Positions 22,359-56,102 are shown, counted from the first letter of the stretch. The stretch is 64,000 nt of DNA from Fimbriimonadia bacterium (GCA_041483895.1 JBGPGO010000017.1:13808-77807), one strand, 5' to 3'. Translations and numbers: made by a program. Notes: generated by a model from the sequence alone, not told the origin.

Positions 22359-22364
22359 GATTCT

Positions 22365-39436: not shown

Positions 39437-39465
39437 TTGACTAAAATAGACAACATAGGTAGAAT
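39437..39465 (+). promoter_or_regulatory. Sigma70-type promoter at the head of the phage-like cluster
   Basis: TTGACT-N17-TAGAAT. Confidence 0.7.
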
Positions 39466-39502
39466 ATCGTCTACTAATCAGGCACATAGGGCGGAGGCGG
39501 CG

Positions 39503-39745
39503 ATGACATTCAGTTGCAGCGCGTGCGGGGCCGAGCATCTGGCGGCGGGAGAGCACTGCGAACCGTGCGACCGGTTTATTGGGGCGCTCGAAGGGCTGCT
39601 CGACCAATATGAGGACCCGCTGCCGGCGCTCAAACAGTTCTGCCAGGACGAATTCGATTGGGTGGTTTTCGACGGCGAAGAGGAGTACGAACAGGACTGC
39701 GTGGACCGCATGCGCGATCTGCGGGATGAGGGAATCGGCTTATGA
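39503..39745 (+). CDS. Small acidic CxxC...CxxC protein
   Basis: GGAGG RBS; CSAC/CEPC; ATGA overlap with the next gene. Confidence 0.6.
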   Translation: MTFSCSACGAEHLAAGEHCEPCDRFIGALEGLLDQYEDPLPALKQFCQDEFDWVVFDGEEEYEQDCVDRMRDLRDEGIGL

Positions 39746-40077
39746 GGCAGGCTGCGAAGCAGGGGGTGGATGGCGCCAAGACCAAGGCGGCTGGTCGGCG
39801 TCGTGTCGCGGCCAAGGCGGAGGAAACGCAGGCGCTCTCTTTGGAATCTGCATTCCTCCGAGTGTCTGAGCGGCGAGGAACGACCCCGAGTGAGCTGTTC
39901 ACGAGCGTGATTGACTCGGGGCTCGTCGCCCAGGCGGAAAACGGGCATGGCTGGGCGGTGAAGATGCTCCTGGATGGCCTGTGCGGCGACGGGGTCAGCG
40001 CGGATCCCGACCCACCACTCAGCCCGGCCGCGGGACTGCGGATCTACGAGATTGTGCGGGAAGAGAAAGGGGAATGA
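39742..40077 (+). CDS. Hypothetical protein, terminase small subunit by position
   Basis: Immediately upstream of and overlapping the large terminase; basic N-terminus; AENG-x-x-WAVKMLLD helix. Confidence 0.45.
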   Translation: MRQAAKQGVDGAKTKAAGRRRVAAKAEETQALSLESAFLRVSERRGTTPSELFTSVIDSGLVAQAENGHGWAVKMLLDGLCGDGVSADPDPPLSPAAGLRIYEIVREEKGE

Positions 40078-41543
40078 TAGGCCCCCACCCTAGCCCTCCC
40101 CCGCAAGCGGGGGAGGGGATTTCTTGTGACGGCCTCTCGTCGAGAGGTGGGTCGCGCAAGAAGGCTTTGGCATCCATGACAACGGTGGAAGCGACACGAT
40201 TGTCGGCTGCCAGCTCTCTTGCGGCCTACGCCGAAATCGTTCACGGCCTCTCGGCTGCGCCGCATCATCGCGAGTGGATCGAGGCGCTGGAAGATCCGGA
40301 TCGCAAACGGATTTTGATCACCGCGCCGCCGGGGCATGGTAAATCAACCTGGGTGGCCGTCATCTATCCGGCCTGGCGTCTCGCGAGGAATCCGGCGGAG
40401 CACATCGTGCTGACGTCCGTCACGGATAACCAGGCCGAGGACCGGGCGAGCGCCGTCGGCTCCGTTGTGCTGTCAAAAGAGTATCGCCGTCTATTTCCTC
40501 ATGTGCGGCAAGGCAAGAGATGGACGCGCGGGGATTGGGAGCTCGCGAGATCGCAGGTGGACGACAAAGACGCCACGATGTTCGCCTGCGGCGTGGGGAG
40601 CTCTTCGCTGATTGGCAGACGGGCGGATTGCATACTTATTGATGATCCGATGTCGGAAGAGACCGCGCGCAGCGCGATTGGCCGCGAGGCGCTTGCGACA
40701 TGGTTTCGCCGCACGCTGCTGACCCGCGCCGCGGGCGACGCGAAGATCGTCTGCATCATGACCCGATGGCATCAGGACGACTTGGCGCCGGTTCTGATCG
40801 AGGCCGGATTCGAACATATCCGAATGCCGGCGGAAGATTACTGGTCGCCGGGCGGGGCTCTATGGCCAGAACTGTACCCACCCGAATTTCTGCTCGAAAG
40901 AAAACGGGACATGGGGACTGCGCTATACAACTGCATGTATCTTGGCGACCCGTCGGGATTGGAAGGCAGGCTGTTCCGTCGAGAATGGTTTGAGATCGTG
41001 CGGGCCGCGCCGGCGATCACGCACGTTGTGAGCGGATGGGACCTCGCGGCCAGCACGCGAAACGAGTCGGATTATTCGGTGAAGACGACTCTCGGTCTCG
41101 GGATCGATGGGAGCGCCTATGTGCTCGGCGTTTGGCGAGAGCGGAGGGAGTTTCCTGTCATCCGCCGAGAGATTGCGTCACAGGGGGTTTTGGACTCCGT
41201 TGCCGCGGTCGGCATCGAAACCAACGCGTTTCAGTTGGCGGCGGTGCAGATGCTCAAAGAGGACCAACTGCCGTTTCCGATACTGCCAATCTCCGCCGAC
41301 AAAGACAAGGTGAGTCGCGCTTTGGAATGGATTGCCGCTGCGGAGGCGGGACGGATCAAACTGGTCTCCGGCGGATGGAATGACGCCTGGCTTTCGGAAA
41401 TAACCGGCTTTCCCGATTCGCCGCACGATGATCAGGTGGACAGTTTCGGCGTGGCATGGCGGGTTGCGAATCGATTCCGTGGAAGTCGGCGGGGACTGTT
41501 GGCGGGCGAAGAGCGGCTTGCGTCCGCATCGATGGATTGGTAA
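40074..41543 (+). CDS. Phage terminase large subunit (Terminase_6/6C-like); alternative start 40176
   Basis: Walker A APPGHGKST, ILIDDP, TRWHQDDL, LWPE, GWDLA, SDYS, FP-x-x-x-HDDQVDS nuclease motif. Confidence 0.93.
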   Translation: MIGPHPSPPPQAGEGISCDGLSSRGGSRKKALASMTTVEATRLSAASSLAAYAEIVHGLSAAPHHREWIEALEDPDRKRILITAPPGHGKSTWVAVIYPAWRLARNPAEHIVLTSVTDNQAEDRASAVGSVVLSKEYRRLFPHVRQGKRWTRGDWELARSQVDDKDATMFACGVGSSSLIGRRADCILIDDPMSEETARSAIGREALATWFRRTLLTRAAGDAKIVCIMTRWHQDDLAPVLIEAGFEHIRMPAEDYWSPGGALWPELYPPEFLLERKRDMGTALYNCMYLGDPSGLEGRLFRREWFEIVRAAPAITHVVSGWDLAASTRNESDYSVKTTLGLGIDGSAYVLGVWRERREFPVIRREIASQGVLDSVAAVGIETNAFQLAAVQMLKEDQLPFPILPISADKDKVSRALEWIAAAEAGRIKLVSGGWNDAWLSEITGFPDSPHDDQVDSFGVAWRVANRFRGSRRGLLAGEERLASASMDW

Positions 41544-41552
41544 GGGGGAATT

Positions 41553-42758
41553 ATGGCTGGGAATGGTGGGTTGTTCAAAGAGCGGGCGCCGTCGTTTTCG
41601 AGCGGAGTCTTGGCATCCGCCCGGTATCCGATCGGCAGCGGTGGGGAGCCGATTGTCGGCTATGATGAACTGCGCCGGCGATGGTCGGTGTTGCGCAAAA
41701 TCGAACGGGATCCGGTGGTTTCCGCCGCGCTGGCGTTTAAGAAATGGCTGCCGGTAGGGGACGGTTGGCGGGTCTATTCGGCGGACGACAGTCCGGAGGC
41801 CGTCAAACAGGCGGAATTCGTCCGGTGGTGCTTCGCGCAGATGGAGGGGACGGTCGAGGAGCTGATCTCGAATGTGCTCGATGCCGTTGCGGTGGGCTTT
41901 AGCGTTGTGGAAAAGGTGTACCGGATCGTCGACCGGGGAGAATACGCGGGTTTTCTCGCGCCGGTCCGGTTCGTTCCGAAAGACCCTTCCACAATCGGAT
42001 TCGAGCTGGGCGCCAGCGGGCAAGTGGAAGCGATCACATTTACGGTTCCGGGTAGAGCGAATGCCGAGCCTCTGCCGCCCGAAAAGTTCATTCATTTTGT
42101 GTACGAAGGAAAATATCGAAGTCCGTACGGATGCGGCGATCTGGTGAAAGCCTACCGCTCGTGGTGGTCGAAGGACAATGCGCTACGCTGGTGGGCGATG
42201 TTCGTCGAAAAGTATGGCGTTGTTCCCCGAATCGGAAAATATGAAGACGGCGCAAGCCAGGAGTTTCAGCAAGAGCTGCTGGACCAACTGAAGGTCTCCG
42301 CGGCGAACACGGAATTTGTCGTGCCCAAGTCAGTCGAGCTGGAGCTTTTGCAGCCGGACGGAGATGGCCAGGCATTCGAGCGTTTTGTAACATATCACGA
42401 CAAAGAGCTTGCCAAAGCGATTCTGGGAAACACGCTTCTCGTGGATGAGGGACAGCGGGTTGGCAGCATGGCGCTCGGGAAAGTGCACTTGGAGGTGCTC
42501 CGGGCGCAATTGCGAAAACTGAAGCGCATATTGGAAGACCGGGTTATGGGCGAACAGATCATTCGCCAGATTATCGATATCAATTACACCGCAACCGACC
42601 GATATCCCAGATTCGTGCTGCCGGATGCCCGCAAAGAGGAGCTGACGGAGCTGGCGAAAGCCATCGCGCTGATGGTAGACAAAGGAATAGTAGAACCGAC
42701 CGAACCCTGGGTGCGGGAATGTCTCGGATTTCCCAAGCAGGAGGAGTATGCATCCTAA
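41553..42758 (+). CDS. Portal protein, DUF935 / Mu gp29-like
   Basis: LDAVAVGFSVVE, PYG-x-G, W-x-x-FVEKYG-x-x-PRIGKY, KAILGNTL, GSMALGKVH. Confidence 0.88.
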   Translation: MAGNGGLFKERAPSFSSGVLASARYPIGSGGEPIVGYDELRRRWSVLRKIERDPVVSAALAFKKWLPVGDGWRVYSADDSPEAVKQAEFVRWCFAQMEGTVEELISNVLDAVAVGFSVVEKVYRIVDRGEYAGFLAPVRFVPKDPSTIGFELGASGQVEAITFTVPGRANAEPLPPEKFIHFVYEGKYRSPYGCGDLVKAYRSWWSKDNALRWWAMFVEKYGVVPRIGKYEDGASQEFQQELLDQLKVSAANTEFVVPKSVELELLQPDGDGQAFERFVTYHDKELAKAILGNTLLVDEGQRVGSMALGKVHLEVLRAQLRKLKRILEDRVMGEQIIRQIIDINYTATDRYPRFVLPDARKEELTELAKAIALMVDKGIVEPTEPWVRECLGFPKQEEYAS

Positions 42759-42978
42759 CATGACACGTCTGCAGAACGCCATCGAAATGATTCGTTTCGG
42801 CAAAATCACGGAGATACACATCGCCGACGGAATACCGCTGCGATTCAGAGTTGAACAGATGATTGATCTGAGCCGTGACGAATCGGTTGCCGCGCTGGAT
42901 CAAGACGGTATCGTGCCCAAGAGAAAAGCCGGTCCGCAATTGGACCGGCTGACTCGTAAAGCAAGATTAGCAGGTTAA
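42748..42978 (+). CDS. Small protein, DUF2292/YezD-like
   Basis: IRFGKIT-x-IHIADG-x-P-x-x-x-x-VEQ pattern; overlaps the portal stop; GGAGGAG RBS. Confidence 0.5.
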   Translation: MHPNMTRLQNAIEMIRFGKITEIHIADGIPLRFRVEQMIDLSRDESVAALDQDGIVPKRKAGPQLDRLTRKARLAG

Positions 42979-43457
42979 TTCTTGCAAAGGATCTTGATGT
43001 TGCCACTGGCCACATACCCGACACGCAGATGATAGAGCGTACCGTGTGCGACATCGCCGACAACCAATGCAATCAGATCGATGCTAAAAATGTTGTCGGT
43101 GATAACGGCTGCCATCTGAGCAGGCTTGCCATTGTAGATCACCTCGGCGACGAATGCGGCGGCGGCAAAGTTCCACGCCTGGGCGCAAACGAACTTGCCG
43201 AACCGAGTGACCCGCACGTCTATGCGGACAGGGCTAAGTGTCGCCGCGCGCATTTTACCAGCGACCGGCCAGAATTCCACATAGTGGAAACGGCCAAAGC
43301 CAATGCCATTATTTACGCCGGCAACCCAAAAATCGGCAGCCGCCTGTTTGCCGTCGGAAGTCCAGATGCCTGGCGACCCATAGGCAATCATGCTATCGGC
43401 AAACGCAGCGCCAACTGCCGAAACGGCTACAACGGCAGCGATCAAAGTTCTTTTCAT
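42975..43457 (-). CDS. Secreted hypothetical protein on the opposite strand inside the cluster
   Basis: AAGGAG RBS; signal peptide MKRTLIAAVVAVSAVGAAFA; C-terminal GNIKI. Confidence 0.7.
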   Translation of the reverse strand: MKRTLIAAVVAVSAVGAAFADSMIAYGSPGIWTSDGKQAAADFWVAGVNNGIGFGRFHYVEFWPVAGKMRAATLSPVRIDVRVTRFGKFVCAQAWNFAAAAFVAEVIYNGKPAQMAAVITDNIFSIDLIALVVGDVAHGTLYHLRVGYVASGNIKILCKN

Positions 43458-43717
43458 TATGATTCTCTCCTTCATGAATGAGATGGCCAAATGGCCACGA
43501 GCGGTTCGCGCAATCAACGCGTAATCCTAATAGTAACACAGTAGTACTTCTCGGTCAAGTTTTGCCAGGTGAGTTTTGTACATAATGGTAGTAGTACTTG
43601 TGGTAGTAGTACTGATAGTTGTTTTGACAGGAAGATCATGATCTGGCTTGCTTTACCAGATTTTCGGTGACTGTCCTTGGAGCGGGTCGGGACCAAAGTC
43701 CTAAAGTTTCATTCTAC

Positions 43718-43738
43718 TAGACGCACGTCTGGTATACT
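43718..43738 (+). promoter_or_regulatory. Extended -10 promoter with an adjacent palindrome
   Basis: TG-G-TATACT at 43730-43738; AGACG-CA-CGTCT palindrome at 43719-43730. Confidence 0.5.
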
Positions 43739-43830
43739 GTTGTCAATAGGAACGCGGGATGGCTTCGGTTCGGCGGTAGACGTGTAGCGAAGCGGAAGAA
43801 GCGATTGGCAAAAGGCTGGCCCGACAAACG

Positions 43831-43876
43831 GGAGGTCTTCGGCGAGATTGGGCGCCGAGGGCCTCCTTATTTTTTT
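43831..43876 (+). terminator. Intrinsic terminator in the leader of the protease-capsid-tail operon
   Basis: GGAGGTCTTCGGCG-N8-CGCCGAGGGCCTCC followed by TTATTTTTTT, ending 14 nt before the ATG. Confidence 0.8.
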
Positions 43877-43890
43877 GAAGGCGGGGTGGA

Positions 43891-44853
43891 ATGCGAGAAG
43901 TGATTAAACACGCAAAGCTGTTTGAGGCGGGAGTCTATGAGGACAAAGGGCTCGAAATGACGGAAGAGGACATTGACGAATTGATCGAGGCATCGGGCCC
44001 AGTGCCGCTTACGATCGGGCATTTGGATCCGGAAACGGAGAACCCGCTGCGACTCGGTGTTGTGAGCGGCCTGTATCGGAAAGGCAAAGAGCTGTTTGGC
44101 GTGATCCGATTTGTGCCGGAAGCATGGGCGCTTGCGGTCAAGTCCGGCGCCCGTTGGCTGTCGATCTGCCTCGACATGCTGCGAAAGCGGCTAGTGGAGG
44201 TTTCGCTCGTTACGAATCCACGAGTCAGCGACGCGAAGGTGAAATTCGACTCGTCGGAACCGATCGAATTCACCGTTCCCTTTGACACGACGCTCGATGA
44301 TCGCGCGTCCGTGGTGCGTCAATCGATTTACGATGCGTATGGTCCCGACGTGTGGGTTTCGGAAGTGTACGATGACAGTGCGATTGTTGAACGGGGCGGC
44401 GAGCTTTGGAAAGTTCCTTATCAGTTGAATGCGGACAATGTGGCTGTTCTTTCGAATCCGATACCTGTAGAACGCCAGTATGTCCCGACGAAATTCAACG
44501 CCCAGGTCGTAGAGGCTTTGGGCCGGGAACGCGAGGCCTTTCGGCGAGTGCGACGCGATCGGATGGAAGAAACAATACTGCAGTGGAAGCGTGACGGCAA
44601 GCTGCTGCCCGCCGGCGAGAAGACGGCGCGAAGGATCTTGTTCGGTCCCGCGGATGGCGCGGAGCTGTTTCAAAAGTTCCTAGATGATCAACCGGCGGGT
44701 CTTCTGTTGCGAGAGGTCGTTCCGTTTCATGGGGAGTCGCTCGACGGCCTCCCCGAACTGGATGCCTCGGAGGCCTCGTTCTGTGACCGATCGGGGATTC
44801 CTCTGGACGAGTACCGGCGCATGAAGGCGGGACCGCCAAAGAGAAGGCGCTGA
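43891..44853 (+). CDS. Prohead protease/scaffold (Mu gpI-like)
   Basis: P-x-x-IGH, G-x-V-x-x-L-x-x-x-G-x-x-L, WLS, EVSLVTNP; C-terminal GKLLPA scaffold motif. Confidence 0.78.
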   Translation: MREVIKHAKLFEAGVYEDKGLEMTEEDIDELIEASGPVPLTIGHLDPETENPLRLGVVSGLYRKGKELFGVIRFVPEAWALAVKSGARWLSICLDMLRKRLVEVSLVTNPRVSDAKVKFDSSEPIEFTVPFDTTLDDRASVVRQSIYDAYGPDVWVSEVYDDSAIVERGGELWKVPYQLNADNVAVLSNPIPVERQYVPTKFNAQVVEALGREREAFRRVRRDRMEETILQWKRDGKLLPAGEKTARRILFGPADGAELFQKFLDDQPAGLLLREVVPFHGESLDGLPELDASEASFCDRSGIPLDEYRRMKAGPPKRRR

Positions 44854-44919
44854 AATCACGCGTCTTCGGCTCTGACGAATGAGAAGTCAACTTGAAGGTA
44901 GTTTCAGGAGGTGTGATCG

Positions 44920-45354
44920 TTGGCTGCATTGACAGCAGATTTGAATCATCCCATAAAGGATGGCGTGATCGTGAGCCAAAAGATGGCTGCGGTCAAGATT
45001 TACAAAGGCGCAATGGTGGGTATGGCGGATGAAACCACCGCAGGCGTACCTGACACAGGATACGTGACAAACCTGGCGACCGGCACAACCAACGCGATGA
45101 TATTTGTTGGTGTGGCGGAAGAGATGGTGGACAACTCCGGCGGCTCCGCCGGCGCGAAATCGATCAAAGTACGTCGGACCGGGAGATTCGTCTTTCCGAA
45201 AACCTCCGCGGTACAGGCGGACGTGAGTCGGGAGTTCTACGCGTCCTCGAATCAGGACCTAACAACAACGGCAACCAAGAATGCGAAGGTTGGCAAATGC
45301 ACGGCATTGATCGACAGCAGCCACCTCGAAATCGCCATCAGCAACTACGCCTAA
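44920..45354 (+). CDS. Capsid decoration/cement-like protein
   Basis: IYKGAMV, FVGVAEE-x-VDNSGGSAG, VRR-x-G-x-F; located between protease and capsid; GGAGG RBS. Confidence 0.7.
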   Translation: MAALTADLNHPIKDGVIVSQKMAAVKIYKGAMVGMADETTAGVPDTGYVTNLATGTTNAMIFVGVAEEMVDNSGGSAGAKSIKVRRTGRFVFPKTSAVQADVSREFYASSNQDLTTTATKNAKVGKCTALIDSSHLEIAISNYA

Positions 45355-45372
45355 GGAAAGGGGGACAGATTA

Positions 45373-46338
45373 ATGCCTGTTGCAAATTCAGACGTCACTG
45401 ACTTCATCGGTCCGGTCCTTCGGAACGATTTTTATGAAGCGTACTATCAAGCGCTCGACGGAGCGGATCAGCGCGGAGTTGACCTGCTCTCTTCGACCAT
45501 CGCGGTGTCCGGAAATACGGCAAAGTTTCCCTTTGCCGGCGATATTCCGCAGATGAGCCGATGGTCGGACGAGCGCGCCTACGACGCCTTCAGCACGTAC
45601 AGCTATTCCGTGACTCTCGGGGATCCGTGGGAGGAGACCGTTGCCATAAAGCGGACGGCGCTGCGCGATGATTTGACCGGCCAGCTCCGCCAGCGAGCGC
45701 GGGATCTCGGCGCGGTGGCGATCTCGAATCGCCTCAAGCAGATCATCAGTTCGCTGGAGACCGGAATTTCAAACAAGTGCTACGACAGCCAAAACTTCTT
45801 TGCGACCAGCCATCCGGCAAGGTCTACGGACGGAACAAGCACCACCTATGGCAACTCCGGAACGTCCGCCCTGGATGCGGCGAGTTTGCAGGATACGGTG
45901 CAAACGATGCGGCTATTCACGTCGGATCAGGGCCATCCGTTGGGCATCACGCCATCACACCTTTTGGTCGGTCCCAACCTGGAATGGCGGGCACGGCAAC
46001 TCCTCGAATCGCCCGTCGTGATTGTCAACGTGGGGGACTCAGCGGTCGGTTCCGGCGCAACGGCGGCGACGCCCTATAAGAACGTTCTCGTCAGCACCCT
46101 GGAGCTGATCGTCAGTCCTTGGATCGGCAACTTCCATTGGTACGTGATGGACCTGATGAAGCCCATCAAGCCCGTGGTGTTGGTTACCGAGATGGGCGAG
46201 CTTATCGAGTTCCAGTACCTGGAAGAAGGCAGCGAGCATTCGTTCAAGCGGGACGAGTTCGTGTTCGGCGTACGCGATCGTTTCGAGATAGGGTACGGCC
46301 TGTGGCAGGTCGCGTACTATCAGGGAGGCACGGCCTAG
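45373..46338 (+). CDS. Major capsid protein, Mu gpT-like
   Basis: P-x-M-x-x-W-x-x-ER, E-x-TVAIKR-x-x-L-x-DD, CYD-x-QNFFA-x-x-HP, LGI-x-P-x-x-L-x-V-x-P, IGYGLWQ. Confidence 0.9.
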   Translation: MPVANSDVTDFIGPVLRNDFYEAYYQALDGADQRGVDLLSSTIAVSGNTAKFPFAGDIPQMSRWSDERAYDAFSTYSYSVTLGDPWEETVAIKRTALRDDLTGQLRQRARDLGAVAISNRLKQIISSLETGISNKCYDSQNFFATSHPARSTDGTSTTYGNSGTSALDAASLQDTVQTMRLFTSDQGHPLGITPSHLLVGPNLEWRARQLLESPVVIVNVGDSAVGSGATAATPYKNVLVSTLELIVSPWIGNFHWYVMDLMKPIKPVVLVTEMGELIEFQYLEEGSEHSFKRDEFVFGVRDRFEIGYGLWQVAYYQGGTA

Positions 46339-46339
46339 C

Positions 46340-46597
46340 ATGGATTGGCTGCAACTGGCTGGTCTTTTGAGTCTTGGAGGGGTGGTCGGCGCAATCGTTG
46401 CGCTGGCCTCCGCCGGGGCCCGTCTGAAGACCGATTGGGAGACACTGCGCGATTCGCTGGTCCCGTATTTGACACAGCGAAACGCCGCCGGCGATATCGA
46501 TGCGGAGTTCCTTCTTTCCGCCATCGGTCCGGTGGATGCGGATATGAAGGCGTCGGCACAAGCATTGCGATCTGTGCAACAGAGAATCCGGCGGTGA
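46340..46597 (+). CDS. Small protein with an N-terminal TM helix
   Basis: GGAGG RBS; hydrophobic N-terminus; GTGA overlap with the next gene. Confidence 0.6.
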   Translation: MDWLQLAGLLSLGGVVGAIVALASAGARLKTDWETLRDSLVPYLTQRNAAGDIDAEFLLSAIGPVDADMKASAQALRSVQQRIRR

Positions 46598-47052
46598 GCA
46601 TTTCGATCCCCGTCGCGGAGATGAAAAGCGCTATCGAAGGATTCATCGCGCTGGCTTGGACCGACGTGACAAGTCCCATCAAATACGAGCGACAGGCGGA
46701 CAGGATTCTTTTGGACAAGGCGGTGACGCCGAACGCGGCGGTCGTCTGGAGAGATCCGGAATCCCAACCGCCGTGGTCGCCGGAGATCGGCACCTACCTG
46801 TTCCCAATCGACGTGTACTACCTGGTTCAGTCGGAGACCCCTGGGCAGTTGGAGTCGACGGTGCAGGGCAAGGCCCGGGATTTTTTGAACCAAGCAATTG
46901 CGGCGAGGAATCGGTGGGCCGGCGTACCGGAAATGCACAGCTGGAGATTGGTAGGCAGTGAAACAGAACACAAGCGCGCGGACGCCTGGCGTGCATCCGG
47001 ATGGGCAAGCGCCCGGATCGCGCTGGAGGTCCAACTCGACTATGAAAAGTGA
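46594..47052 (+). CDS. Hypothetical virion protein (tail completion/terminator-like by size and position)
   Basis: Translationally coupled GTG; about 150 aa with alternating beta pattern at the C-terminus. Confidence 0.5.
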   Translation: MSISIPVAEMKSAIEGFIALAWTDVTSPIKYERQADRILLDKAVTPNAAVVWRDPESQPPWSPEIGTYLFPIDVYYLVQSETPGQLESTVQGKARDFLNQAIAARNRWAGVPEMHSWRLVGSETEHKRADAWRASGWASARIALEVQLDYEK

Positions 47053-47281
47053 TGGCCGTGAAGGGGTCACCCTGTCCTGGCTGCAGTTCGGTATCGGCGT
47101 AATGGGTCTGTTCGTTACGATGTTCAGTGGTTGGCATTCGATCGTAACGCAGTTGGAAATCAACACCGCGGTGCAGCAGCAGGATCTGTCGGAAGTAAAG
47201 ACCGCTGTGAAGGAACAATAGTCTGTGTTGACCGATTTGCGCGATCGAGTCGTGCGGATGGAAGAGAGGTCCAAGCGATGA
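47042..47281 (+). pseudogene. TM + coiled-coil protein (holin-like?) with an in-frame TAG at 47219-47221
   Basis: Read-through gives ...KEQ*SVLTDLRDRVVRMEERSKR, ending in an ATGA overlap with the next gene. Confidence 0.65.
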
Positions 47282-47691
47282 GCTACTTTGCCGATGCGGA
47301 TTTGACGGAGCGGATTCGTGGGACGAACGTGACGCCGACCTCCGGGGAGATTAGCGCGGCGCGGGCGTTTGCGGAGGGGTATGTGGATGCGGCGCTGACA
47401 CCGAAATACAAGTGCCCCTTCAACCCTGTGCCGGACCTTGTCAAGTTCATCGCGCTGGACATAGCGGCTTACGACGTTCTGTGCAAGCATTTTTCGATCG
47501 AGGACCCGAACGTCGGGGATCTGATCCAACAGTTTTGGTCCCGGGCCCACGAGACGATCGCGCGGCTGCAGGCTGGCACTTTCAACTTGCATGACAACGC
47601 GATCGTTGACGAGGCCGCGGAAAAACAGATCATGGCTTCTAAGACGACCGACCAGATTGTGGTAACCGACGAGGCGCTCACGGACTGGTAA
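47278..47691 (+). CDS. Head-tail adaptor, Mu gp36/DUF1320-like
   Basis: MSY-x-x-x-x-DL, VD-x-x-L-x-x-x-Y-x-x-P-x-x-PVP, DIAAY. Confidence 0.8.
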   Translation: MSYFADADLTERIRGTNVTPTSGEISAARAFAEGYVDAALTPKYKCPFNPVPDLVKFIALDIAAYDVLCKHFSIEDPNVGDLIQQFWSRAHETIARLQAGTFNLHDNAIVDEAAEKQIMASKTTDQIVVTDEALTDW

Positions 47692-47703
47692 GGGGAGGAA
47701 TGG

Positions 47704-48123: not shown

Positions 48124-48529
48124 TGGCAATTGAGGTCCAACGGATCGATGATCTGAGAACATTGATCCAGGTAGCCGCCAATCAGCGCGAGGCGCGTTCT
48201 TTGGCGGTGCACTTCAGTGGACTGTACGGCTTCGAAGTAACGCCGGAAGATGTGAAAGTGGCATCTGTGATCGCGGGGTGCTCCGGGAAATCGCTTGAGG
48301 AGATCGTGCAGCTATCTCGGACGGAGGGCCCGTTGTTGGTGGAGACGCTGCGCAAGTGCAATGAACTGAACGGGTGGGAGAGTGGCGGAGGCCCTTTTGG
48401 GAGTGCCGGTGGTGGGACCGGCTCCTCCGCGCCTCGCTAGCCGGGTTGGGACGCCACCCGTTCGAACTGGCCCACCCCGGCTCGGCGTTGCCCCGGTGGG
48501 CGTTGGAGGAGGTGATGGATGGTCATTGA
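48123..48529 (+). CDS. Tail assembly chaperone pair (G/GT-like): short form ends 48440, -1 frameshift form ends 48529
   Basis: Canonical slippery heptamer C CCT TTT at 48392-48398; -1 frame is open (WECRWWDRLLRASLAGLGRHPFEL...) up to the next gene. Confidence 0.7.
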
Positions 48530-48941: not shown

Positions 48942-48947
48942 CTACAG

Positions 48948-51191
48948 ATGTCACTGCAACTCAACCTAAACATAAACGGATACGATCTGATTGAGGCCGG
49001 ATGGGGAAAGACCCTATCCGCGCAGCAGTTCGTCGTCGATGGGCCGCTGGACAAAGACCTATGGCGGGAGCCGCTGACGGGCGCGCTGATGCTGCGGCCG
49101 GCGCCGTTCTCGGCGGAGTGGCGGGAGAGTCTTTCGTTCGAAGCGAGCAAGCTGGACGCGACCGATTTCCATCTCCAATCCCCCTATTGGGAGACGATCC
49201 TGACCAAAGGCGGCGACAGCGATCCGTTTCTCTCCACCGTTTATGCCGCGGGCAGCACGACATCCGGAATCGAATACAGCACCGGGATAGACATCGCAGG
49301 CCTGAAGACCAGCTACGGCGATAGTCTCGTCTGGGCGCTGCAGTCGAAGACGAATTCGGAGCTCAACCAGGGCCTCTACGCTGAGGTCCGGAACTTTGGA
49401 TACAACTTCGAGAAGGTCTCCAACTACCTGGCGATCATGTTTGGCCAATACGCGATTCGACTTCAAACCGACGGCATCGCCATTCTATATAAGTATAAGC
49501 CTGCCGCAAATAGTTGGACATTTCTCAAAGAAATGCGGTTTGCGGGTCAATCGGAACAGCACGGGACAAGCCTGTCGCTGCTCATCCTTCCCGTTCTTGG
49601 AAACCGGCTGCATTTCTATTTTTCGACCGGCCGCGCCGTCAACGCCGCCTATGACAATCAGCGGTCGCCCGGGCCGCGCGACAGTTACTATTCGTACCGG
49701 ATGCCGATTGAGGAAGAGACCTGGGACAACAGCGCTAAAGTGTGGCGGGTCGTCGACCAATCCCCCATCCGAGTGGCCGTAGCGCCGGGCCGGCGGTACC
49801 TGATGCAGATGGGCCGCGTCGTCTTTCCGACCGACGCCAAGTCCGCGACGCTTGGGCACGATGACCTCGGCCTGCCGCGATCGAATGACCCTTCGGCGAC
49901 TCTCTACGGATACGCGCCGGGAAATTCAAGCGTGGACAGCACGATTCTGGACAAGACGACCGGTGTGGAATTCCTGTCCGGAACGGATACCAAGCCGCAG
50001 CCAAGGGTAACGCTCCAGGCAGCGTCCAACGGCATCTGGAGCCCGGAGGTGCACGGAGTCGCCCTTGATTTTCCGGAGCTTATCTTTGCCATCAGCCGTA
50101 GCCAGATGAACGCTTCCGTGGACGTATTGCGGGTCCGCTTGCGGCTTCATAATGAGCTGGAACCTCAGGAGATGGAGGTCTATCTGCGAGATCCGATTGG
50201 GGCGTACTCGTCGCTCCGCGAATTGGCCTCCGTTCCTTCCAAACTCGCTTTGGCCGGGGGGATCGTTTTTCAGGGCGACAGCGTGCGGGTGGAATCGCTG
50301 GATGCTCCCGGCCCGCCCGTCGTGCGCCTGCGATTTCGGGACGGATGGGAGCGATTGGAGCAACTGCAATTTGGTCCGGAGATCAACTACGACGGAATGC
50401 TTCACACGGACGTGATTCGGCGCGTTCTCAACCGTGCCGGCTTTCCGGATGGTTTCATATCAATCTCGGATGACGATGTTCAATTGCCGGGAGGCGGTCA
50501 GTCTACGGGCGATCCGAATTCGATTCCATTGAGCCCGGCGGCGAACGATTGGCGATTTGCCCCAAAGCCTCGTGACACGCCCGCCGAAATCGCGAGACTG
50601 GTCGCGAAGCAGTTTTCCGGCTGGCGGCTTCGGCATGACGGCGGCGTTTGGCGCTATCAACCCAAGCCCGGCTCGACGACGCCTTCCAAATACGTTTACC
50701 TCACTACAGGAGGCTATAACGGATCCGGCCACAGTGCCGCGGATCGGATTCGCGCGTTCGATTATCGTCAACACAAATTTCCGCCGGACTTCAACACGCT
50801 GTACGTTTATTGCGCGGATGCGACGGGCGGCGAGGTCCGGCGCGTGACGACGATTGAACAGAACGAGCCGTCGATCACTGATTCCGGAAGCGATGACTAC
50901 GTCGGGCGAGTTTCGGAATCCCACATTTCGGTATCGTGGGCGCCCACGCTTGGGGCCTGCTCCCGCGTGTCGCGATTGCTGATGGAAGAGAGCGGGCACG
51001 CGCGGCGCGTGGTGGTCTTCACCGGGGAATGGAAGCCGGGATTCGTGCCGGATACGATTGCTGAGTTATTCGGGACGAACAACGAGTCGCTGGGGATATT
51101 TCTTCTGGAAGAAGTGGAGATATGGATCACGCGCGATTGGGATGAACTGTACGAAGCGACCTATGTCGCGTCCCGTTTGGTTGCGCCGTAG
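48948..51191 (+). CDS. Large tail/baseplate-hub-like protein (hypothetical)
   Basis: 747 aa ORF in the tail region; C-terminal half with a hub-like pattern (VFQG, RDGWERL, PDFNTLYV). Confidence 0.55.
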   Translation: MSLQLNLNINGYDLIEAGWGKTLSAQQFVVDGPLDKDLWREPLTGALMLRPAPFSAEWRESLSFEASKLDATDFHLQSPYWETILTKGGDSDPFLSTVYAAGSTTSGIEYSTGIDIAGLKTSYGDSLVWALQSKTNSELNQGLYAEVRNFGYNFEKVSNYLAIMFGQYAIRLQTDGIAILYKYKPAANSWTFLKEMRFAGQSEQHGTSLSLLILPVLGNRLHFYFSTGRAVNAAYDNQRSPGPRDSYYSYRMPIEEETWDNSAKVWRVVDQSPIRVAVAPGRRYLMQMGRVVFPTDAKSATLGHDDLGLPRSNDPSATLYGYAPGNSSVDSTILDKTTGVEFLSGTDTKPQPRVTLQAASNGIWSPEVHGVALDFPELIFAISRSQMNASVDVLRVRLRLHNELEPQEMEVYLRDPIGAYSSLRELASVPSKLALAGGIVFQGDSVRVESLDAPGPPVVRLRFRDGWERLEQLQFGPEINYDGMLHTDVIRRVLNRAGFPDGFISISDDDVQLPGGGQSTGDPNSIPLSPAANDWRFAPKPRDTPAEIARLVAKQFSGWRLRHDGGVWRYQPKPGSTTPSKYVYLTTGGYNGSGHSAADRIRAFDYRQHKFPPDFNTLYVYCADATGGEVRRVTTIEQNEPSITDSGSDDYVGRVSESHISVSWAPTLGACSRVSRLLMEESGHARRVVVFTGEWKPGFVPDTIAELFGTNNESLGIFLLEEVEIWITRDWDELYEATYVASRLVAP

Positions 51192-51206
51192 CGCTGGAGG
51201 AGATCG

Positions 51207-51434
51207 ATGAGACCACAAAGCGATTGGATTCGGCGGGCATTGCGAAGGCATGCTCGAAAGCAATATGTATCGGAGGCCGATGGTCCGTTTACGAGCGGAA
51301 ACCTGTCAACGCAGAAGATGGATGTTTTGCGCCTGCCGCTATCCGCCTCTGCGAGACTGGATGCCGGCAACGATGGCGGCCTCTTTTTGATAGGGCTTTC
51401 CCTTGTGGGCGGCGAGGATGTTATTGGACTCTGA
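51207..51434 (+). CDS. Small hypothetical phage-like protein
   Basis: GGAGGAG RBS; C-terminal FLIGLSLVGGEDVIG motif. Confidence 0.6.
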   Translation: MRPQSDWIRRALRRHARKQYVSEADGPFTSGNLSTQKMDVLRLPLSASARLDAGNDGGLFLIGLSLVGGEDVIGL

Positions 51435-51451
51435 TTCGGCCCAGTAGCGTT

Positions 51452-51659
51452 GGTAGCCGCACGCTGTAGCTTGCTCCGGGTTCGGACTCCCTCCTCCGCT
51501 TGCGGGGGAGGGTTGGGGTGGGGGCGTATCGCTGGGTTTCAACGCGTCTGCGCAAGCTGAAGCGTGCGGCTACCGGTTGATGACAACAAAGGAAATCCAC
51601 ATTCCATTTCATTGACGATCGCATCGTCAAGACCGCGCAAGCTAAGGCATGCGGCTACC
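51452..51659. repeat. Repeat cluster: three REP family C copies (GGTAGCCGCACGCTTTAGCTTGCG-like) plus one boxC-like copy
   Basis: REP at 51452-51474 (+), 51550-51574 (-), 51635-51659 (-); boxC-like 51488-51524. Confidence 0.88.
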
Positions 51660-51684
51660 GGTTGACGACAACAAAGGAGAATTT

Positions 51685-54592
51685 GTGGCGGCGGATATTT
51701 TTCGCACTGGCAGGACGCGGCGGCTGACTCTTACCTTCGACTACGAGATGCTTGGGTTATATCGCGAGATATTCCCCGTCGGTCCGGGCTTCATCGCCCA
51801 GACCGGCATGGCGGTCCACTGGATGGGATTCGAGCTTTGGGGCGGCGCACTCAATGACGTCTGCGGCCAGATCCCGACCGGAGCTCCCGGCAGCGGTTTT
51901 CTCCCGCCTCCGGCGGGCGGACCGTCCGGCATCGTGTATGTGTTCCAGCTCAAGCTTCCCGCCGATCTGGGCGTTGGATGGGGCAATTTTTACAATCAGT
52001 ATGGTCCCTGGGGCAGCCCGGGCCATCAGTACCCGGTCGCCGCGTATCAGGAGATGCCGGATGCGACGCCGACGGATTTCAGCGCGAAGGGTTCGGTCAC
52101 GCTCTATATGGACGTCGAGGAATGGAAACAGATTAGCGTCGACTTAGCCACGCCCCGAGTCCTGCTGGATTACCCGACGAGCGGCGCGGGCCCCGCTGAC
52201 GACGACTTTGTGGGGCTTTCGACTTTGGGATACTTTGAGGGCCCAAAGGCGGGCGGCGAATATGGCTTTTCGATCGCGATGACAAACGGCAATGGCGCGA
52301 GCTTCTCTGGATCGATTCCCGCCGGACTGAGCGGCGCGGAACCGGAAGCGCACCGGTCGATTGCCCGCATTTTGATGGCGCCGTCCGGAGACGATCCGAT
52401 CGCCGCCAAAATCAAAACTATGAAGCTGAACGGAGACCCGATCGACTTCGACCTTCTTCAATACAGCAGCTCGCCGGTCGCCGTCAGCGGAACTTCCGGC
52501 GGTACGATTAACTTCGATGTGGATCCGACAACCGTCCTTGGTCCGTACCAGGCGCGGTGTGACTGCACGCCGGATACCGCAATTCACATCGATGGCCTAA
52601 CCACGCGCTTGTTTGAGCAGAATTACGGCGCATCCGTGGATGTCAGGCGGTCTTGGGCCGATACTCCTTTGCTGTCCTGCGCCAACGGCGTCTACTCAGG
52701 TACCGAAAGCTACAAAGATGAGTCGGTTTCCGTGCAACTATGCGACAGCATCGGACCAATTGTACTGCAATCCGCTCTCGTGCAAAAACCGGACCTGTTC
52801 GTATGGCTGGACAACGCCTGGATGGTGGCGAATGGGGAAATGCCGCAGGATTGGCGCATCCTCATCGCGGATGATTTTTCCTGGGCGCCGTTCTCACTCA
52901 TGCATCGGTCCACAAGCCTGATTGATGATTTCAATAGCACTGCCGGATGGAGCGGTGCGAACGTGACACTCAGCGTTGCGAGCGGCGCGATGGTGACGAA
53001 GGTGAGTGGCGGAGCCGGTTCTGTGACAAAAAACTACTCCGAAGACGCCTCTCAGTATAGACGGCTTCGCCTCCGCGCGAGAGGCTCCGGCTCATCTACC
53101 ATTCGCGTCCGAATCAATGGCAGCGGGCTCTATTCTTGGAATGTTGCTGTCGGCCCGATCTATCAGGAAATCGTGATCGATTTATGCGCTCCCGGCGGAT
53201 CATCGGCTCTCTATGATCTGACCGACAATAGCTATGTCGCTCCCGGCGACTTTTATGGACCGCAACAGATAGCAAGCATCGCATTCGAGGACCTCCAAAA
53301 CGGTCAGACATACTACTTCGATAGAATTGAATTTATCCGAAGCGGCAGCGCCACCTACACTCCACTGCCGCCCTTCGATGAGAGCTATGTCGGAGATGAT
53401 GGCATTCGTCGGTATCGAGTATGTTGGGGCCTTGCAGACCGGCGGCAGGTGTTTGATATGCCGTACCGGAAGGATGACACGTTTGTCAGCGTCGCGGCGC
53501 TGATATCGGAGATCCAATCGCACGACGCATACGATATGAGAATCACGGCGGTCGCATCGCCGGCCAGCGACGCAACGAACTACTATTTCAATCACTCAGC
53601 CAGGCCCGCGGCGTTCATGGCGACCGAAACCTATCAGGGAGGCATTCGACGCAGCCGCGTGGACACGCCGATGGGGGGGGTTGTCCTCCGTGCAGTGGCT
53701 GCTGCGATTCGACAAAGTGGAGATCTACCCAGGTATCGGAAATCCCGCGGGCAGCTTTGGGGGGGCCTATCCGTTGCGATTTACCAAACGGTTGGAAATG
53801 ACGGCGCATGGCCTTGTGCTCGACAATTCCGCTCACCACGCGGCGGCAGGAGCATCCGTCGATTTGAAGCTGGGGAGCGGGGTCCAGCAGACGGTGATTG
53901 CCGATTCGGAAGGTTACTATCGCTTCGCCCCGTTCAAAACATTGGCGGGTTCCTGGAAGGTTGCGTCCGGGACGAGCGGCGACGTCACGCTTTCATCCGG
54001 ACTGACGGACAGAAAGTACCGATGGGCGGGGCTGGCAAGCAACACGGCCTTGGTCGCCGGCCCAACAGCCATCGTCGCCGACAAGACCGGACGCCTCTAC
54101 ATCGCGAATGTGGATGATACCAATCTCTGATGCCGGCGGATCGACATCGGCGGATCAGCGCAAGACTTCTTGGTGGAATCCGGCGTAGAGCAGGACGGCA
54201 TCGGCATAACCTGGGCGCAGCCACATCAACTGTTTGTCATATATCTGTTGTCCGGCTCAATCCATTTCCGCAAATCAGAAGATGACGCAGCGACATGGGA
54301 GGAAGCGGTGGAAATATTTGCAAGTGGCGATTATCCGAATATAGCCGCCGATCCCGCGAACGGATTGCTGTATGCGTTTCGGCACGATGGCAGCGATCTG
54401 GTAAGCAAGAGATCGGTGGATGGTGGCGCTACATGGCAGAGCGAAATAGTAGTTGTATCATCCTGTCCAGCCCAACAGTGCGGCGTAACCGTTCGGCCGG
54501 ACGAGTCATATTCGATATATGTATCATACAAAGATGCGGGTGGTGCGATCCAAACCGCGATCAGCAAGGACAACGGACTTACATGGGGGTAA
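51685..54592 (+). pseudogene. Large tail-associated protein broken by a frameshift at G8 (53673-53680) and an in-frame TGA (54128-54130)
   Basis: AAAGGAGA RBS + GTG 51685; removing one G joins ORF 53681-54130, which is in frame with ORF 54170-54592 (BNR-like S-x-D-x-x-x-TW repeats). Confidence 0.7.
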
Positions 54593-54595
54593 CGC

Positions 54596-55789
54596 ATGGG
54601 ATATAACCGATTGACCGATGGCGGTGTGCTGTCGGCAACGCAACAGAATCAAAACTGGTCGGATATCGAGGCGCTGTCGGAAATAGGGGAAGGATTCTGC
54701 GTTTTGTCGGGCCTTACCCTGGCAGCGGGGTCTGGATTGTCGGTTGACGTGGCCGCCGGGCAGGCCGTGATCAATAAACTTGTGACAAAGAGCGCGGAGA
54801 CGGTTACGGGGCTGCCCGCCTCAACAACAACATATCTGTGGCTTCGCGATGACGGCGTCTTCACGCAGACATCGAGTCTGTCCCCTCCGACCGGTGCACA
54901 TGCGCTGCTGGGGTCCGTGACGACTGGGACTACGGACGTCACGGGGGTTGACAGCGCCATAGCCTGGAAGGGCCGGCGCGTCGAGGACGCCACGAAGCTG
55001 ATTGCGGGTCCGAATTCTCTCACCGTGGTCCTGAACGCACCGCAAGTTGGTGTTGGAACCGATTCTCCTTCGGACACGCTGCACGTTTCGGGCATTGCGC
55101 GGGCGGATGCGATCTCTTTGCCGGAACGGGCATCGCCGCCCACGCCGGTGGCGAATCGAGCATTCTTGTATTCCAAGGACGACAGCGGCGACACAGAGCT
55201 GTTTTTCTGTGATGACGGAGGCGCGGAAGTTCAACTGACACGAGACGGCAATATCGCCGTCGCGGCCTACCTGCTCCTCGCCGGCGGAACCATGGGAGGG
55301 AACGTCGTGATGGGAGGCAGTCACAAGCTGACCGGATTGGCCGCCGGAACGGCGAACGGCGATAGCGTGCGATACGAGCAGTTGATGAATCATAGCATTC
55401 GAACTTTCGGAATCAATGCATTATCTTATCTCCAGCTTCAGAATACGACTAGATACTATCCACTGAATGGCTATCGAGGGCCGAGCGTGGGAAATGAAGC
55501 ATACGTCCAGGTGAAGATGTATGAGAAATCGTATCAGTTCAAGAACTTGCGAGTATATGTCAGTGCGAACACGACGAGCGCGTCATCCACTGTCAAACTG
55601 CGCGACGATGGCGCGGATAGCAGCTTGGTTGTAACGATCGGCGCGGGGCAAACGGGATCGTTTGAGAATGTATCGGACACTCCCACCGTTGATGCCGGAT
55701 CGCTTTGCAACTACTCAGTGTTTGCGGGAGCGGGGGGAACGGGATCTATGACAATTGAATCAATACAGGTTGACGCGGTGAGCAGCTAA
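54596..55789 (+). CDS. Tail fibre-like protein
   Basis: VLSGL-x-L...GLSVDVAAG-x-A, VGVGTDSP-x-x-x-LHV-x-G, LAGGTMGG, TGLAAGT-x-x-x-D-x-V fibre motifs. Confidence 0.75.
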   Translation: MGYNRLTDGGVLSATQQNQNWSDIEALSEIGEGFCVLSGLTLAAGSGLSVDVAAGQAVINKLVTKSAETVTGLPASTTTYLWLRDDGVFTQTSSLSPPTGAHALLGSVTTGTTDVTGVDSAIAWKGRRVEDATKLIAGPNSLTVVLNAPQVGVGTDSPSDTLHVSGIARADAISLPERASPPTPVANRAFLYSKDDSGDTELFFCDDGGAEVQLTRDGNIAVAAYLLLAGGTMGGNVVMGGSHKLTGLAAGTANGDSVRYEQLMNHSIRTFGINALSYLQLQNTTRYYPLNGYRGPSVGNEAYVQVKMYEKSYQFKNLRVYVSANTTSASSTVKLRDDGADSSLVVTIGAGQTGSFENVSDTPTVDAGSLCNYSVFAGAGGTGSMTIESIQVDAVSS

Positions 55790-56100
55790 TGGTGATACGA
55801 TGGAGTCCGGATACGTGTGATTGTGTGATTGACATGGATGAAAACGGCAAGTATGTCGGAACAGTTGCGGTGTGCAAAGAGCCGGCGCACAAAGCGGCAG
55901 CCGGGGATGGCGGCCATTTAGCCGTGGTGATCGGCCACCAAGCGCCATATAATGACCTGGGAAAGTACTCTTCTGACAAGTCGGAGGACATGCAGCCGTG
56001 GGACTTCGACGAGCGGTCGGAGAAGATAAGGGACGTGCAGGCGAAGGCGTCGGCGGCGAAAGAGGCCGAGCGGGATAGGATTCGAGCGCTTGGTGCGTAA
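55789..56100 (+). CDS. Hypothetical phage-like protein (possible fibre chaperone)
   Basis: TAATG overlap with the fibre gene; W-x-PDTC-x-C...C...H motif. Confidence 0.6.
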   Translation: MVIRWSPDTCDCVIDMDENGKYVGTVAVCKEPAHKAAAGDGGHLAVVIGHQAPYNDLGKYSSDKSEDMQPWDFDERSEKIRDVQAKASAAKEAERDRIRALGA

Positions 56101-56102
56101 CG

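Follow-up and report, generated by a model that had tools for sequence, protein, structure and literature searches.

A 64,000-nucleotide stretch of a Fimbriimonadia bacterium genome (GCA_041483895.1, JBGPGO010000017.1:13808-77807; hereafter the window, which is G000:C17:13808-77807 in our numbering of this 3.95-Mb, 43-contig genome, G000) carries at 39.4-56.5 kb a cluster of phage-type genes for DNA packaging, heads and putative tail-side proteins. With a probability of roughly 0.6, we take this locus to be a phage-derived set of particle genes in its contiguous arrangement, inherited vertically as chromosomal genes in the bacterial family f1, and not a prophage. By genomic criteria, the set is on balance best described as a domesticated particle resembling a gene transfer agent (GTA) or the PBSX particle. 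The signs of domestication are split loci, host-like synonymous divergence, a low ratio of nonsynonymous to synonymous substitutions (dN/dS), insertions of host repeats and host-like codon usage, and they would make the f1 set an independent, Mu-derived GTA-like candidate in a barely cultured phylum.

An earlier note on this DNA, the original prediction, had proposed a stand-alone, structural-only virion cluster ending at 56100, in a lineage that it guessed to be Armatimonadota. The structural-only content was borne out, and the lineage guess was right, as the named relatives belong to Fimbriimonadales/Armatimonadota. The term "stand-alone" did not hold, since the cluster is part of a larger family of dispersed head genes in Armatimonadota, and the proposed end was too far downstream: comparison with a related genome, G001, showed that the block common to relatives stops at 55789. 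No GTA or domesticated capsid system for Armatimonadota was described in the literature searched in full text, in line with the prediction's own statement.

Inheritance of the particle genes in family f1

Family f1 was represented by G000, G001 and G002, the latter two sharing one genus that is sister to that of G000. Both G001 and G002 have intact counterparts of the G000 capsid, portal and terminase, at 63-71% identity. In these two genomes the particle genes were split into two loci among housekeeping genes (dnaE, RNase HII, PlsY, LptF/G, MiaB). We call the two gene groups unit 1 (two small proteins, the large terminase and the portal) and unit 2 (from the protease/scaffold gene through the cement protein, the Mu gpT capsid, small membrane-like proteins and the gp36 adaptor to about eight tail-side genes). 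In G001, unit 1 (C45:214-3364) was separated by ~20 kb of housekeeping genes from unit 2 (protease to 397-aa gene, C45:24236-36576), which adjoins dnaE; in G002, the units were found on different contigs. The original prediction had proposed to examine whether relatives are complete prophages, and these intact, two-locus copies among housekeeping genes favor domestication. It had also expected the genes at the same locus in related genomes. This was not seen: the set is contiguous in G000 and in two loci in G001 and G002, and the flanks differ between the genera. Host synteny was poor overall, with the host genes of one G001 contig mapping to 14 different G000 contigs. This poor synteny fits published remarks on the scattered gene order of Fimbriimonas (PMC4072686) and on the "seemingly disorganized" genome of Chthonomonas (PMC4959169).

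We then compared the divergence of particle and host genes. Nonsynonymous (dN) and synonymous (dS) rates for the G001-G002 pair were estimated by the Nei-Gojobori method for 16 particle genes and 18 host genes. The dS values ranged from 0.32 to 0.98 for particle genes and from 0.08 to 1.09 for host genes, and the median dN/dS was 0.107 and 0.091, respectively. Fourteen of the 16 particle genes had a dN/dS of 0.04-0.19, with the major capsid protein at 0.038, the cement protein at 0.041, the portal at 0.057 and the large terminase at 0.066; the two high values (0.34 and 0.39) came from open reading frame (ORF) calls whose N-terminal parts are probably non-coding. Between G000 and G001, protein identity was 38-75% for the 16 particle genes and 28-71% for the 25 host genes of that G001 contig matched in G000, the housekeeping genes among them showing 52-71% (dnaE 65, MiaB 71, RNase HII 66). 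The dN/dS comparison, which the original prediction had suggested, thus turned out in favor of domestication. Vertical inheritance of the f1 set under purifying selection is well supported by these comparisons of the three genomes sampled, and so is domestication at the level of the family.

The composition and codon usage of the cluster are host-like: its GC content was 0.582 (genome 0.582), its pooled GC at third codon positions 0.682 (genome mean 0.697, sd 0.065) and its codon log-odds per residue 0.167 (genome 0.183). Two host repeats have entered it. REP-a, a 37-nt palindromic repeat, occurs at 40081-40117 and 51487-51525 in the cluster and again at 9847-9882 of the window, and its copies used as BLAST queries gave 78 and 73 genome matches, so the host repeats noted previously are real. 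REP-b has a core of ~27 nt and copies at 51550-51593, 51635-51678 and 57189-57269. Coverage was examined in the assembled contigs of four sediment metagenome runs from four studies, which may include the source sample of G000. The REP-a site at 40081-40117 had a depth of 68-94x against a background of ~4-5x, and very high depth was also seen at the REP-a site 51487-51525 and at the REP-b copies.

Pfam scanning covered 75 ORFs of the window (30 + 29 + 16), and the 30 cluster-region ORFs were also compared with PHROGs. No integrase, repressor, replication gene, DDE transposase (MuA) or other transposase, or MuB was detected among the 75 ORFs, no tRNA was found in the window, and a repeat scan returned no att-like bracketing direct repeats apart from host REP copies, in agreement with the original prediction. 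The features of an intact prophage (integrase, att, replication module, lysis cassette) were therefore not found in the 64 kb, and the 55 ORFs scanned around the G001 and G002 loci likewise yielded no integrase, replication or att features. The only lysis-related signal in the G000 cluster was a sub-threshold Pfam holin match (E 0.0026) of a 145-aa ORF at its 3' edge.

Gene content and candidate control signals

The features of the locus are as follows (window coordinates, strand, description; a dot marks features given without strand).

36588-38192, left host flank: MurJ (Pfam)
39308-39342, dot: inverted repeat TTAGCCCATCG..CGATGGGCTAA, 13-15 bp, read from the sequence between the upstream host gene and the unit 1 promoter
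39437-39465, +: unit 1 promoter-like site TTGACT-17-TAGAAT, 10/12 matches
39459-39474, dot: operator-like palindrome GTAGAATATCGTCTAC, overlapping the unit 1 -10 hexamer
39503-39745, +: 80-aa acidic protein with CxxC..CxxC, first gene of unit 1; 47% identity to the equally placed G001 80-aa gene
39742-40077, +: 111-aa basic protein, candidate small terminase by position alone; 50% identity to the G001 116-aa gene just 5' of the large terminase gene
40149-41543, +: large terminase, conserved part; Terminase_6C 3e-10, Terminase_6N 8.7e-5, phrog_38 8.4e-95
41553-42758, +: Mu-type portal; PF06074 6.6e-70, phrog_113; 63-64% identity to G001/G002
42975-43517, -: inserted gene for a small secreted-type protein, outside the particle set; signal-peptide-like N-terminus judged by eye
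43717-43738, +: operator-like palindrome CTAGACGCACGTCTGG (43717-43732) followed by TATACT, the candidate unit 2 promoter, from a three-genome upstream alignment
43830-43877, +: leader hairpin of 15 pairs with a T-run, terminator-like, between the unit 2 promoter and the protease gene
43891-44853, +: candidate head protease/scaffold (Mu gpI-like); phrog_976 8e-5 (weak)
44920-45354, +: cement/decoration-like protein; phrog_1731 2.4e-20, PF09956 (Phage_cement_2) below its curated cut-off
45373-46338, +: major capsid protein of the Mu gpT family; PF10124 1.5e-48; 69% identity to G001/G002
46340-46597, +: 85-aa protein with a hydrophobic, transmembrane-like N-terminal stretch (by eye); 50% identity to G001
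46621-47052, +: ~143-aa conserved protein at the head-completion position; conserved with G001/G002, no family match
46958-47278, +: small protein with a transmembrane-like stretch and then a possible coiled coil (by eye); conserved with G001, interrupted by TAG
47278-47691, +: gp36-type head-tail adaptor; PF07030 7.2e-11, phrog_195; 66% identity to G001
47704-48120, +: gene at the tail-tube position, 139 aa in G001/G002; interrupted by TAG, no family match
48123-48520, +: 105-aa gene with a conserved overlapping frame (48314-48520); identity to G001 56% (main) and 62% (overlapping)
48948-51191, +: 747-aa phage-like structural protein; 49-50% identity to G001/G002
51207-51434, +: 75-aa conserved protein; 46-47% identity to G001
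51487-51678, dot: three host repeats in one intergenic gap (REP-a and two REP-b; BLAST, depth, repeat scan)
51691-54586, +: fibre-like gene with a C-terminal BNR-like domain, a single 974-aa frame in G001/G002; BNR_2 matches below cut-off, broken in G000
54596-55789, +: 397-aa candidate fibre/receptor-binding protein, last gene common with relatives; 60% identity to G001/G002
55789-56540, +: two ORFs (103 aa and 145 aa) of uncertain membership, unmatched by any ORF of the G001 cluster regions
56517-57125, -: PF04199 cyclase/KynB-family gene, right host flank (Pfam)

All ORFs of the cluster region are on the + strand except the inserted gene at 42975-43517, bearing out the near co-orientation described previously. 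As for the host flanks, MurJ and the KynB-family gene were recovered, and the left neighbor (38242-39258), which had been called dockerin-like, gave no match in the Pfam scan. A similar division applies to the virion gene list: terminase, portal, decoration protein, gpT capsid and gp36 adaptor were recovered by family scans, the protease match was weak, and the ORFs named as tail tube, chaperone and tail had no family match. The inverted repeat at 39308-39342 had no counterpart upstream of unit 1 in the G001 and G002 regions inspected.

The open frame of the large terminase begins at 39981, and its identity to the G001 and G002 proteins is 69-71%. No Pfam or PHROG family matched the preceding 111-aa protein. 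The inserted gene, which also lacked a Pfam or PHROG match, is provided with a promoter-like site (43558-43530) and a terminator-like site (42950-42927) of its own. Its insertion point, the portal/protease gap, coincides with the point at which the set is split in G001 and G002; in two genomes of other families, G025 and G010, two host genes lie there. In the interval from portal to protease, no ORF matched Mu F (gp30) by Pfam or PHROGs. The G001 and G002 protease orthologues (55% identity) matched PF10123 below its cut-off, and the 85-aa protein matched the profile of a gene, "s87", found 3' of the capsid gene in other families (hhalign probability 98%, E 2.4e-13).

The tail side was approached through less direct evidence. 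The label rests on the position of these genes after the adaptor, the sub-threshold BNR matches, the overlapping frame, and the viral atlas neighbors of the 747-aa protein. The 105-aa gene and its overlapping frame resemble a tail-chaperone frameshift pair, as judged from their layout. The nearest neighbors of the 747-aa protein in a language-model protein atlas were viral hypothetical-protein clusters (score 0.96), and by eye its sequence is not tape-measure-like; a word-indexed search of 5.8 billion proteins returned just 8 relatives of it and 7 of the capsid protein. In the same type of atlas search, the 397-aa protein was only weakly linked to phage tail-fibre clusters (scores of at most 0.81). 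The 145-aa ORF contains a hydrophobic, membrane-protein-like stretch (by eye). Comparison of the 747-, 822- and 397-aa tail-side ORFs with PDB chains by sequence gave no meaningful match, and AlphaFold models of the 747-aa and tube-position proteins, built from three-sequence alignments, were unusable (pLDDT 28.7 and 39.2). No tail sheath, tube or baseplate family was detected by Pfam or PHROGs among the downstream ORFs of G000 or G001.

Just 3' of the last particle gene of the relatives (G001 L014:11868-12596, G002 L016:7362-8150), a 242-aa gene was 96% identical between the two genomes with a dS of 0.077, its neighbors having a dS of ~0.5-1.0; the low value may reflect recent exchange or very strong codon constraint.

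Both units appear to share a regulatory site. The original prediction had placed a near-consensus promoter at the start of the cluster; a site with 10/12 matches is indeed present at 39437-39465, and its architecture is repeated upstream of the 80-aa gene in G001 and G002, but such sites occur at chance level in the region (8 found, shuffles 7.3 +/- 3.0). At the equivalent position of unit 1, G001 has GTAGACTTATGTCTAC and G002 has GTAGACTAATGTCTAC, both perfect copies of GTAGAC-N4-GTCTAC. At unit 2, G001 carries GTAGACGTGTGTCTGG within the spacer of TTGACA-17-TATAAT, and G002 has GTAGACGCATGTCTGG. With at most one mismatch, the palindrome GTAGAC-N4-GTCTRS was thus found at 6/6 unit promoters of G000, G001 and G002, and the same palindrome precedes recA, ~190-230 nt upstream, in 3/3 f1 genomes. 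The particle units account for 2/4 perfect sites in G001 and 2/6 in G002. Other sites precede a radical-SAM gene in both of these genomes, and further ones precede HNH and Mrr nucleases, a glyoxalase/bleomycin-resistance-type gene and a 391-aa protein. Since both promoters share the palindrome with recA, DNA-damage-type control of both units is likely, and the palindrome is a candidate operator of a DNA-damage-type host regulator, which provides a concrete regulatory handle on the system.

The 391-aa protein (G000 C8:63543-64728, L209:854-2029) is encoded directly behind an operator-like site and has a weak PHROG "DNA polymerase" match (1.2e-8); it may be an ImuB-type damage-inducible polymerase. 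A longer palindrome with the operator core inside, AAAGAGTAGAC-N4-GTCTACTCTTT, was found at intergenic G000 sites C1:5561, C13:108796 and C5:70377 and also at C19:46012, C6:46958 and C7:24882 (six loci: L198, L200, L205, L202, L207, L208). They may be additional targets of the same regulator, or they may form a repeat family of their own.

The leader hairpin of unit 2, with its U-run, is equally placed in G001 and G002 and may act as an attenuator; the three sequences are too few for covariation, and an Rfam search of 39200-44000 gave no match.

A possible course of events would begin with a host SOS-type repressor that binds the recA-shared operator and holds both units off until stress. The leader hairpin would add antitermination control ahead of unit 2. 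Going by the known roles of their families, the portal, protease, capsid and cement proteins would then build Mu-type heads, which the terminase would fill with DNA. The adaptor and tail-side proteins would complete the particles, and cell lysis would free them.

Lesions in G000 and alternative explanations

The original prediction had overlooked three premature stops and one frameshift in G000. The codon TAG at 47219-47221, where G001 has Q, truncates the small membrane-like protein gene with 18 conserved codons beyond it, and TAG at 48049-48051 truncates the tube-position gene with 22 conserved codons beyond. The fibre-like gene has a frameshift in a G8 run at 53674-53681 (~53679) and a TGA at ~54127-54129, where G001 has R. 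Recoding of TAG was rejected, as it is the commonest stop in G000 (933/2219 long ORFs). Since conserved codons persist after each stop, the breaks are recent. The lesions are restricted to the connector/tail-side half, all five head genes and most tail-side genes being intact. In the G000 copy, the tail side is probably impaired or subject to phase variation, a state that is recent judging from the codons retained. The intact copies of G001 and G002 and the freshly broken copy of G000 offer a natural contrast.

Several observations weigh against the reading of a domesticated particle set. The two TAG codons, the TGA and the G8-run frameshift fall in three connector/tail-side genes of G000 itself, and two of the stops recur in metagenomes: TAG 48049 was covered by contigs of X1, X3 and X4 (3/4 runs) and TGA ~54128 by contigs of X3 and X4, in each case without differences. 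The presence of a tail is deduced indirectly, because the tail-side ORFs match no known family; no ORF 3' of the adaptor in G000 had a Pfam or PHROG match, and PHROG scans at a relaxed threshold gave none for the tail-side ORFs of G000 and G001. No endolysin was found in G000, as had been noted before, and the whole G000 genome has no homologue of the Amidase_2 gene of G001 and G002. If Mu-like in size, the head would have room for all 16 kb of the cluster, in contrast to classical GTAs. On the regulatory side, the upstream region of lexA, when examined, had no good palindrome site, and genome-wide the one-mismatch pattern was no commoner than its reversed control. The particle is known here from its genes alone, and the f1 sample is small, consisting of three genomes, two of them congeneric, and a few metagenome proteins. 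The Amidase_2 (peptidoglycan amidase) gene itself lies between the adaptor and tube-position genes in G001 (L013:982-1464) and G002 (L015:18537-19019).

These points bear most directly on the possibility that the G000 cluster is a dead relic, i.e., that the set is functional in the family, was lost in the G000 species and has started to decay there. Besides the four lesions (TAG 47219, TAG 48049, G8 ~53679, TGA ~54128), this explanation draws on the rarity of stops elsewhere, as the alignment of the G001 contig proteins to G000 (14,533 residues) showed just one stop inside a host-gene alignment, on the lack of variants at the covered stops in the contigs of the four runs, on the missing endolysin, and on the unrelated gene inserted between portal and protease. 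It is nevertheless unlikely in our view: the five head genes and most tail-side genes are intact, two of the truncations cost only ~19-23 C-terminal residues, the codons conserved after each stop would make any loss very recent, the G8-run frameshift could represent phase variation or an assembly error, and the promoters, operators and leader hairpin are retained. A more sweeping proposal, that the genes are what is left of an ordinary defective prophage, serve no host function in any member of the family and are conserved merely through youth, would account for phage-type genes without a demonstrated function and for the "incomplete" calls that PHASTER made for similar regions in three Fimbriimonadales metagenome-assembled genomes (MAGs) (PMC8597652). 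We consider it very improbable. An ordinary decaying prophage is disfavored for the family because dS is host-like (~0.3-1.0 between G001 and G002) and dN/dS has a median of 0.11 (host genes, 0.09); moreover, G000-G001 divergence equals that of the host, the units are split among housekeeping genes yet intact, the operator is kept at both units in three genomes, and the composition is host-like with host REP elements inserted.

Capsid-forming satellites lack a full phage genome but encode a terminase, portal, protease and capsid. By its similar gene content, the cluster could therefore be a helper-dependent mobile satellite (like a phage-inducible chromosomal island (PICI) or a capsid-forming island), or it could belong to a functional phage with its other genes elsewhere in the genome. 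A second, unrelated terminase-like gene (G000 C39:2329-3633, L036; 30% identical) might be counted in favor; it lies on a short contig and may be a piece of an unrelated phage. Integrase, replication and att features are however absent from the 75 window ORFs and the repeat scan and from the 55 ORFs at the G001 and G002 loci, divergence is host-like, an IMG/VR pattern scan found no relative, and the closest phage capsids in INPHARED reach no more than 31% identity, making this alternative highly improbable. Metagenome scans for f1 relatives likewise returned little: the first found none, and the second, alignment-based, found three short contigs of 1.4-4.6 kb.

Related head genes in Armatimonadota and known particle systems

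Homologues of the f1 genes were sought in 61 Fimbriimonadales genomes, the tallies counting the unpublished genome G036 as one genome with its sequence unused. The capsid query matched in 47/61 genomes (25/27 genera) and the portal query in 49/61. Outside f1, these genes belong to a head-only set that we call type A. It comprises a terminase, a Mu-type portal, a protease, a cement protein, a gpT capsid and at most four small proteins; no tail gene was found nearby. A module of protease, cement protein, capsid and up to four small genes stands together, and the terminase and portal lie elsewhere. The set is single copy and scattered over the chromosome with different host flanks per genus (for example L019:14474-17860 in G034, L031:16001-18171 in G006, L017:8821-18054 in G025, and L077-L081). 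The complete genome G020 has its capsid, portal and terminase genes at 1.41, 1.23 and 2.27 Mb, respectively; in G006, also complete, the capsid gene maps to 1.88 Mb and the other two to 0.10 Mb. No mobility gene was found among 133 Pfam-scanned ORFs around the capsid gene in five genomes.

The distribution of type A follows taxonomy. In a capsid tree of 42 genomes, which left out four fragmentary matches and G036, the GTDB families f2, f4 and f5 each formed one side of a branch (SH-aLRT 95, 92 and 88), and 0/500 label shuffles reached as few label changes. In 20 genomes, capsid identity between pairs correlated with RecF identity (Spearman coefficient 0.87 without f1), the pairs not being independent. 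Across the phylum, 72/251 Armatimonadota genomes had a match at E <= 1e-20 in a family-specific manner (e.g., f18 17/18, f25 11/12, f8 0/23). Relatives were encoded by 149 stretches of the GTDB species set; among the best 80 of these, every record that names a taxon is Armatimonadota, a few being labeled simply "bacterium". Upstream of the protease gene, the recA-type palindrome occurs within ~120 nt in 8/10 f2 genomes and in 2/23 genomes of f4 plus f5, the chance expectation being ~0.1 per region.

The f1 and type A sets have in common, in the same order, the portal, protease, cement and capsid genes and a small membrane-like protein after the capsid gene. Their packaging and tail-side genes set them apart. 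The type A terminase (query from G025) matched in 47/61 genomes, none of them in f1, and the f1 terminase query gave strong matches (70-71% identity) in f1 alone, with weaker ones in five other genomes, four of these at 31-34%. The f1 genomes have one capsid gene only, no type A terminase, and a terminase of a different type. The 747-aa gene, the sole tail-side query run across the 61 genomes, also matched strongly in f1 alone, and the other f1 tail-side proteins had no match in the capsid-gene loci of eight genomes from other families. By hhalign, the f1 connector/tail-side proteins, gp36 adaptor included, showed no link to the type A proteins s93, s146 and s101, and the type A small genes had no PHROG match at a relaxed threshold. 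Internal stops seen in type A terminase matches were discarded as probable overruns of the natural stop by the alignments, since they occur only in matches reaching query residue 586 or beyond and the frames are 407-611 aa long.

The f1 capsid is ~37% identical to the others, and families with equal RecF divergence (~38%) share 51-64%; the f1 set is therefore not a simple orthologue of type A. On this evidence it forms a lineage of its own that is related to type A and is either a replacement or an orthologue that evolved at a strongly accelerated rate. When 56 library representatives were added to the tree, f1 and type A fell in one supported clade of 43 rows in which library representatives interleave, and the two were not supported as sister groups. 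We tentatively suggest, at somewhat less than even odds, that an ancient capsid-and-packaging set, scattered around the chromosome and in at least family f2 wired to the recA-type operator, was inherited vertically in Armatimonadota and was replaced in f1 by a related set with its own terminase and tail-side module. If true, the replacement of one domesticated system by another would argue that the host needs the function, and the phylum would possess a widespread virus-derived organelle, a DNA-packaging and possibly tailless capsid.

Published genomes contain traces of such genes. Among the PHASTER "incomplete" prophage regions of the three Fimbriimonadales MAGs, one was annotated "portal; head; capsid" (7.1 kb, no att; PMC8597652), and that article gives no further interpretation of the regions. 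With the present results, "incomplete prophage" calls in such MAGs become a testable hypothesis of a conserved cellular function. Gene transfer agents have been shown experimentally in a handful of lineages only. A review asks how widespread GTA elements are and how they can be separated from prophages (PMC11841831).

Compared with GTAs of the RcGTA type from Alphaproteobacteria (Rhodobacter capsulatus, Caulobacter), the f1 set is alike in being a structural-only cluster of head and tail-side genes of ~15-16 kb, in its vertical inheritance, purifying selection and parts at separate loci, and in its host control, which is a candidate one here (PMC11841831). It differs in its phylum and independent origin, with heads of the Mu gpT and Mu portal families, and in its candidate control by a recA-type operator lying directly on both structural promoters. 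It also lacks recognizable tape-measure, tube and hub families. RcGTA uses other capsid and portal families than the Mu type. PBSX of Bacillus consists of SOS-induced defective-prophage particles that package host DNA and kill sensitive cells. Like PBSX, the f1 genes are chromosomal, non-propagating, phage-derived particle genes with a link to DNA damage, a putative one here through the operator common with recA; unlike PBSX, no sheath or tube families and no adjoining Xre-type repressor were found, and the genes are Mu-like rather than PBSX-like. With Mu-like phages (Mu, B3/D3112, Mushuvirus, Helicobacter Mu-like prophages), the set shares PF06074, PF10124, PF07030 and the cement families as well as the gene order portal..protease-cement-capsid, but capsid identity to the nearest INPHARED capsids is at most 31%, and transposase, MuB, Mu F (gp30) and repressor are missing. 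The f1 terminase is nearest to those of non-Mu phages, such as Pseudanabaena phage Pam1 (33% identity), and its nearest phage relatives differ from the Mu-like phages that match the capsid, which agrees with the earlier description of Mu-like head proteins paired with a Terminase_6-type motor.

Elsewhere in the window, six ORFs (220, 413, 186, 276, 76 and 486 aa) without a Pfam match occupy 20164-25743. They adjoin a defence-type neighborhood at 15335-20026, which encodes a Schlafen/AlbA_2 protein, a 911-aa N6-methylase/Eco57I-type restriction-modification fusion and a HicB-like antitoxin.

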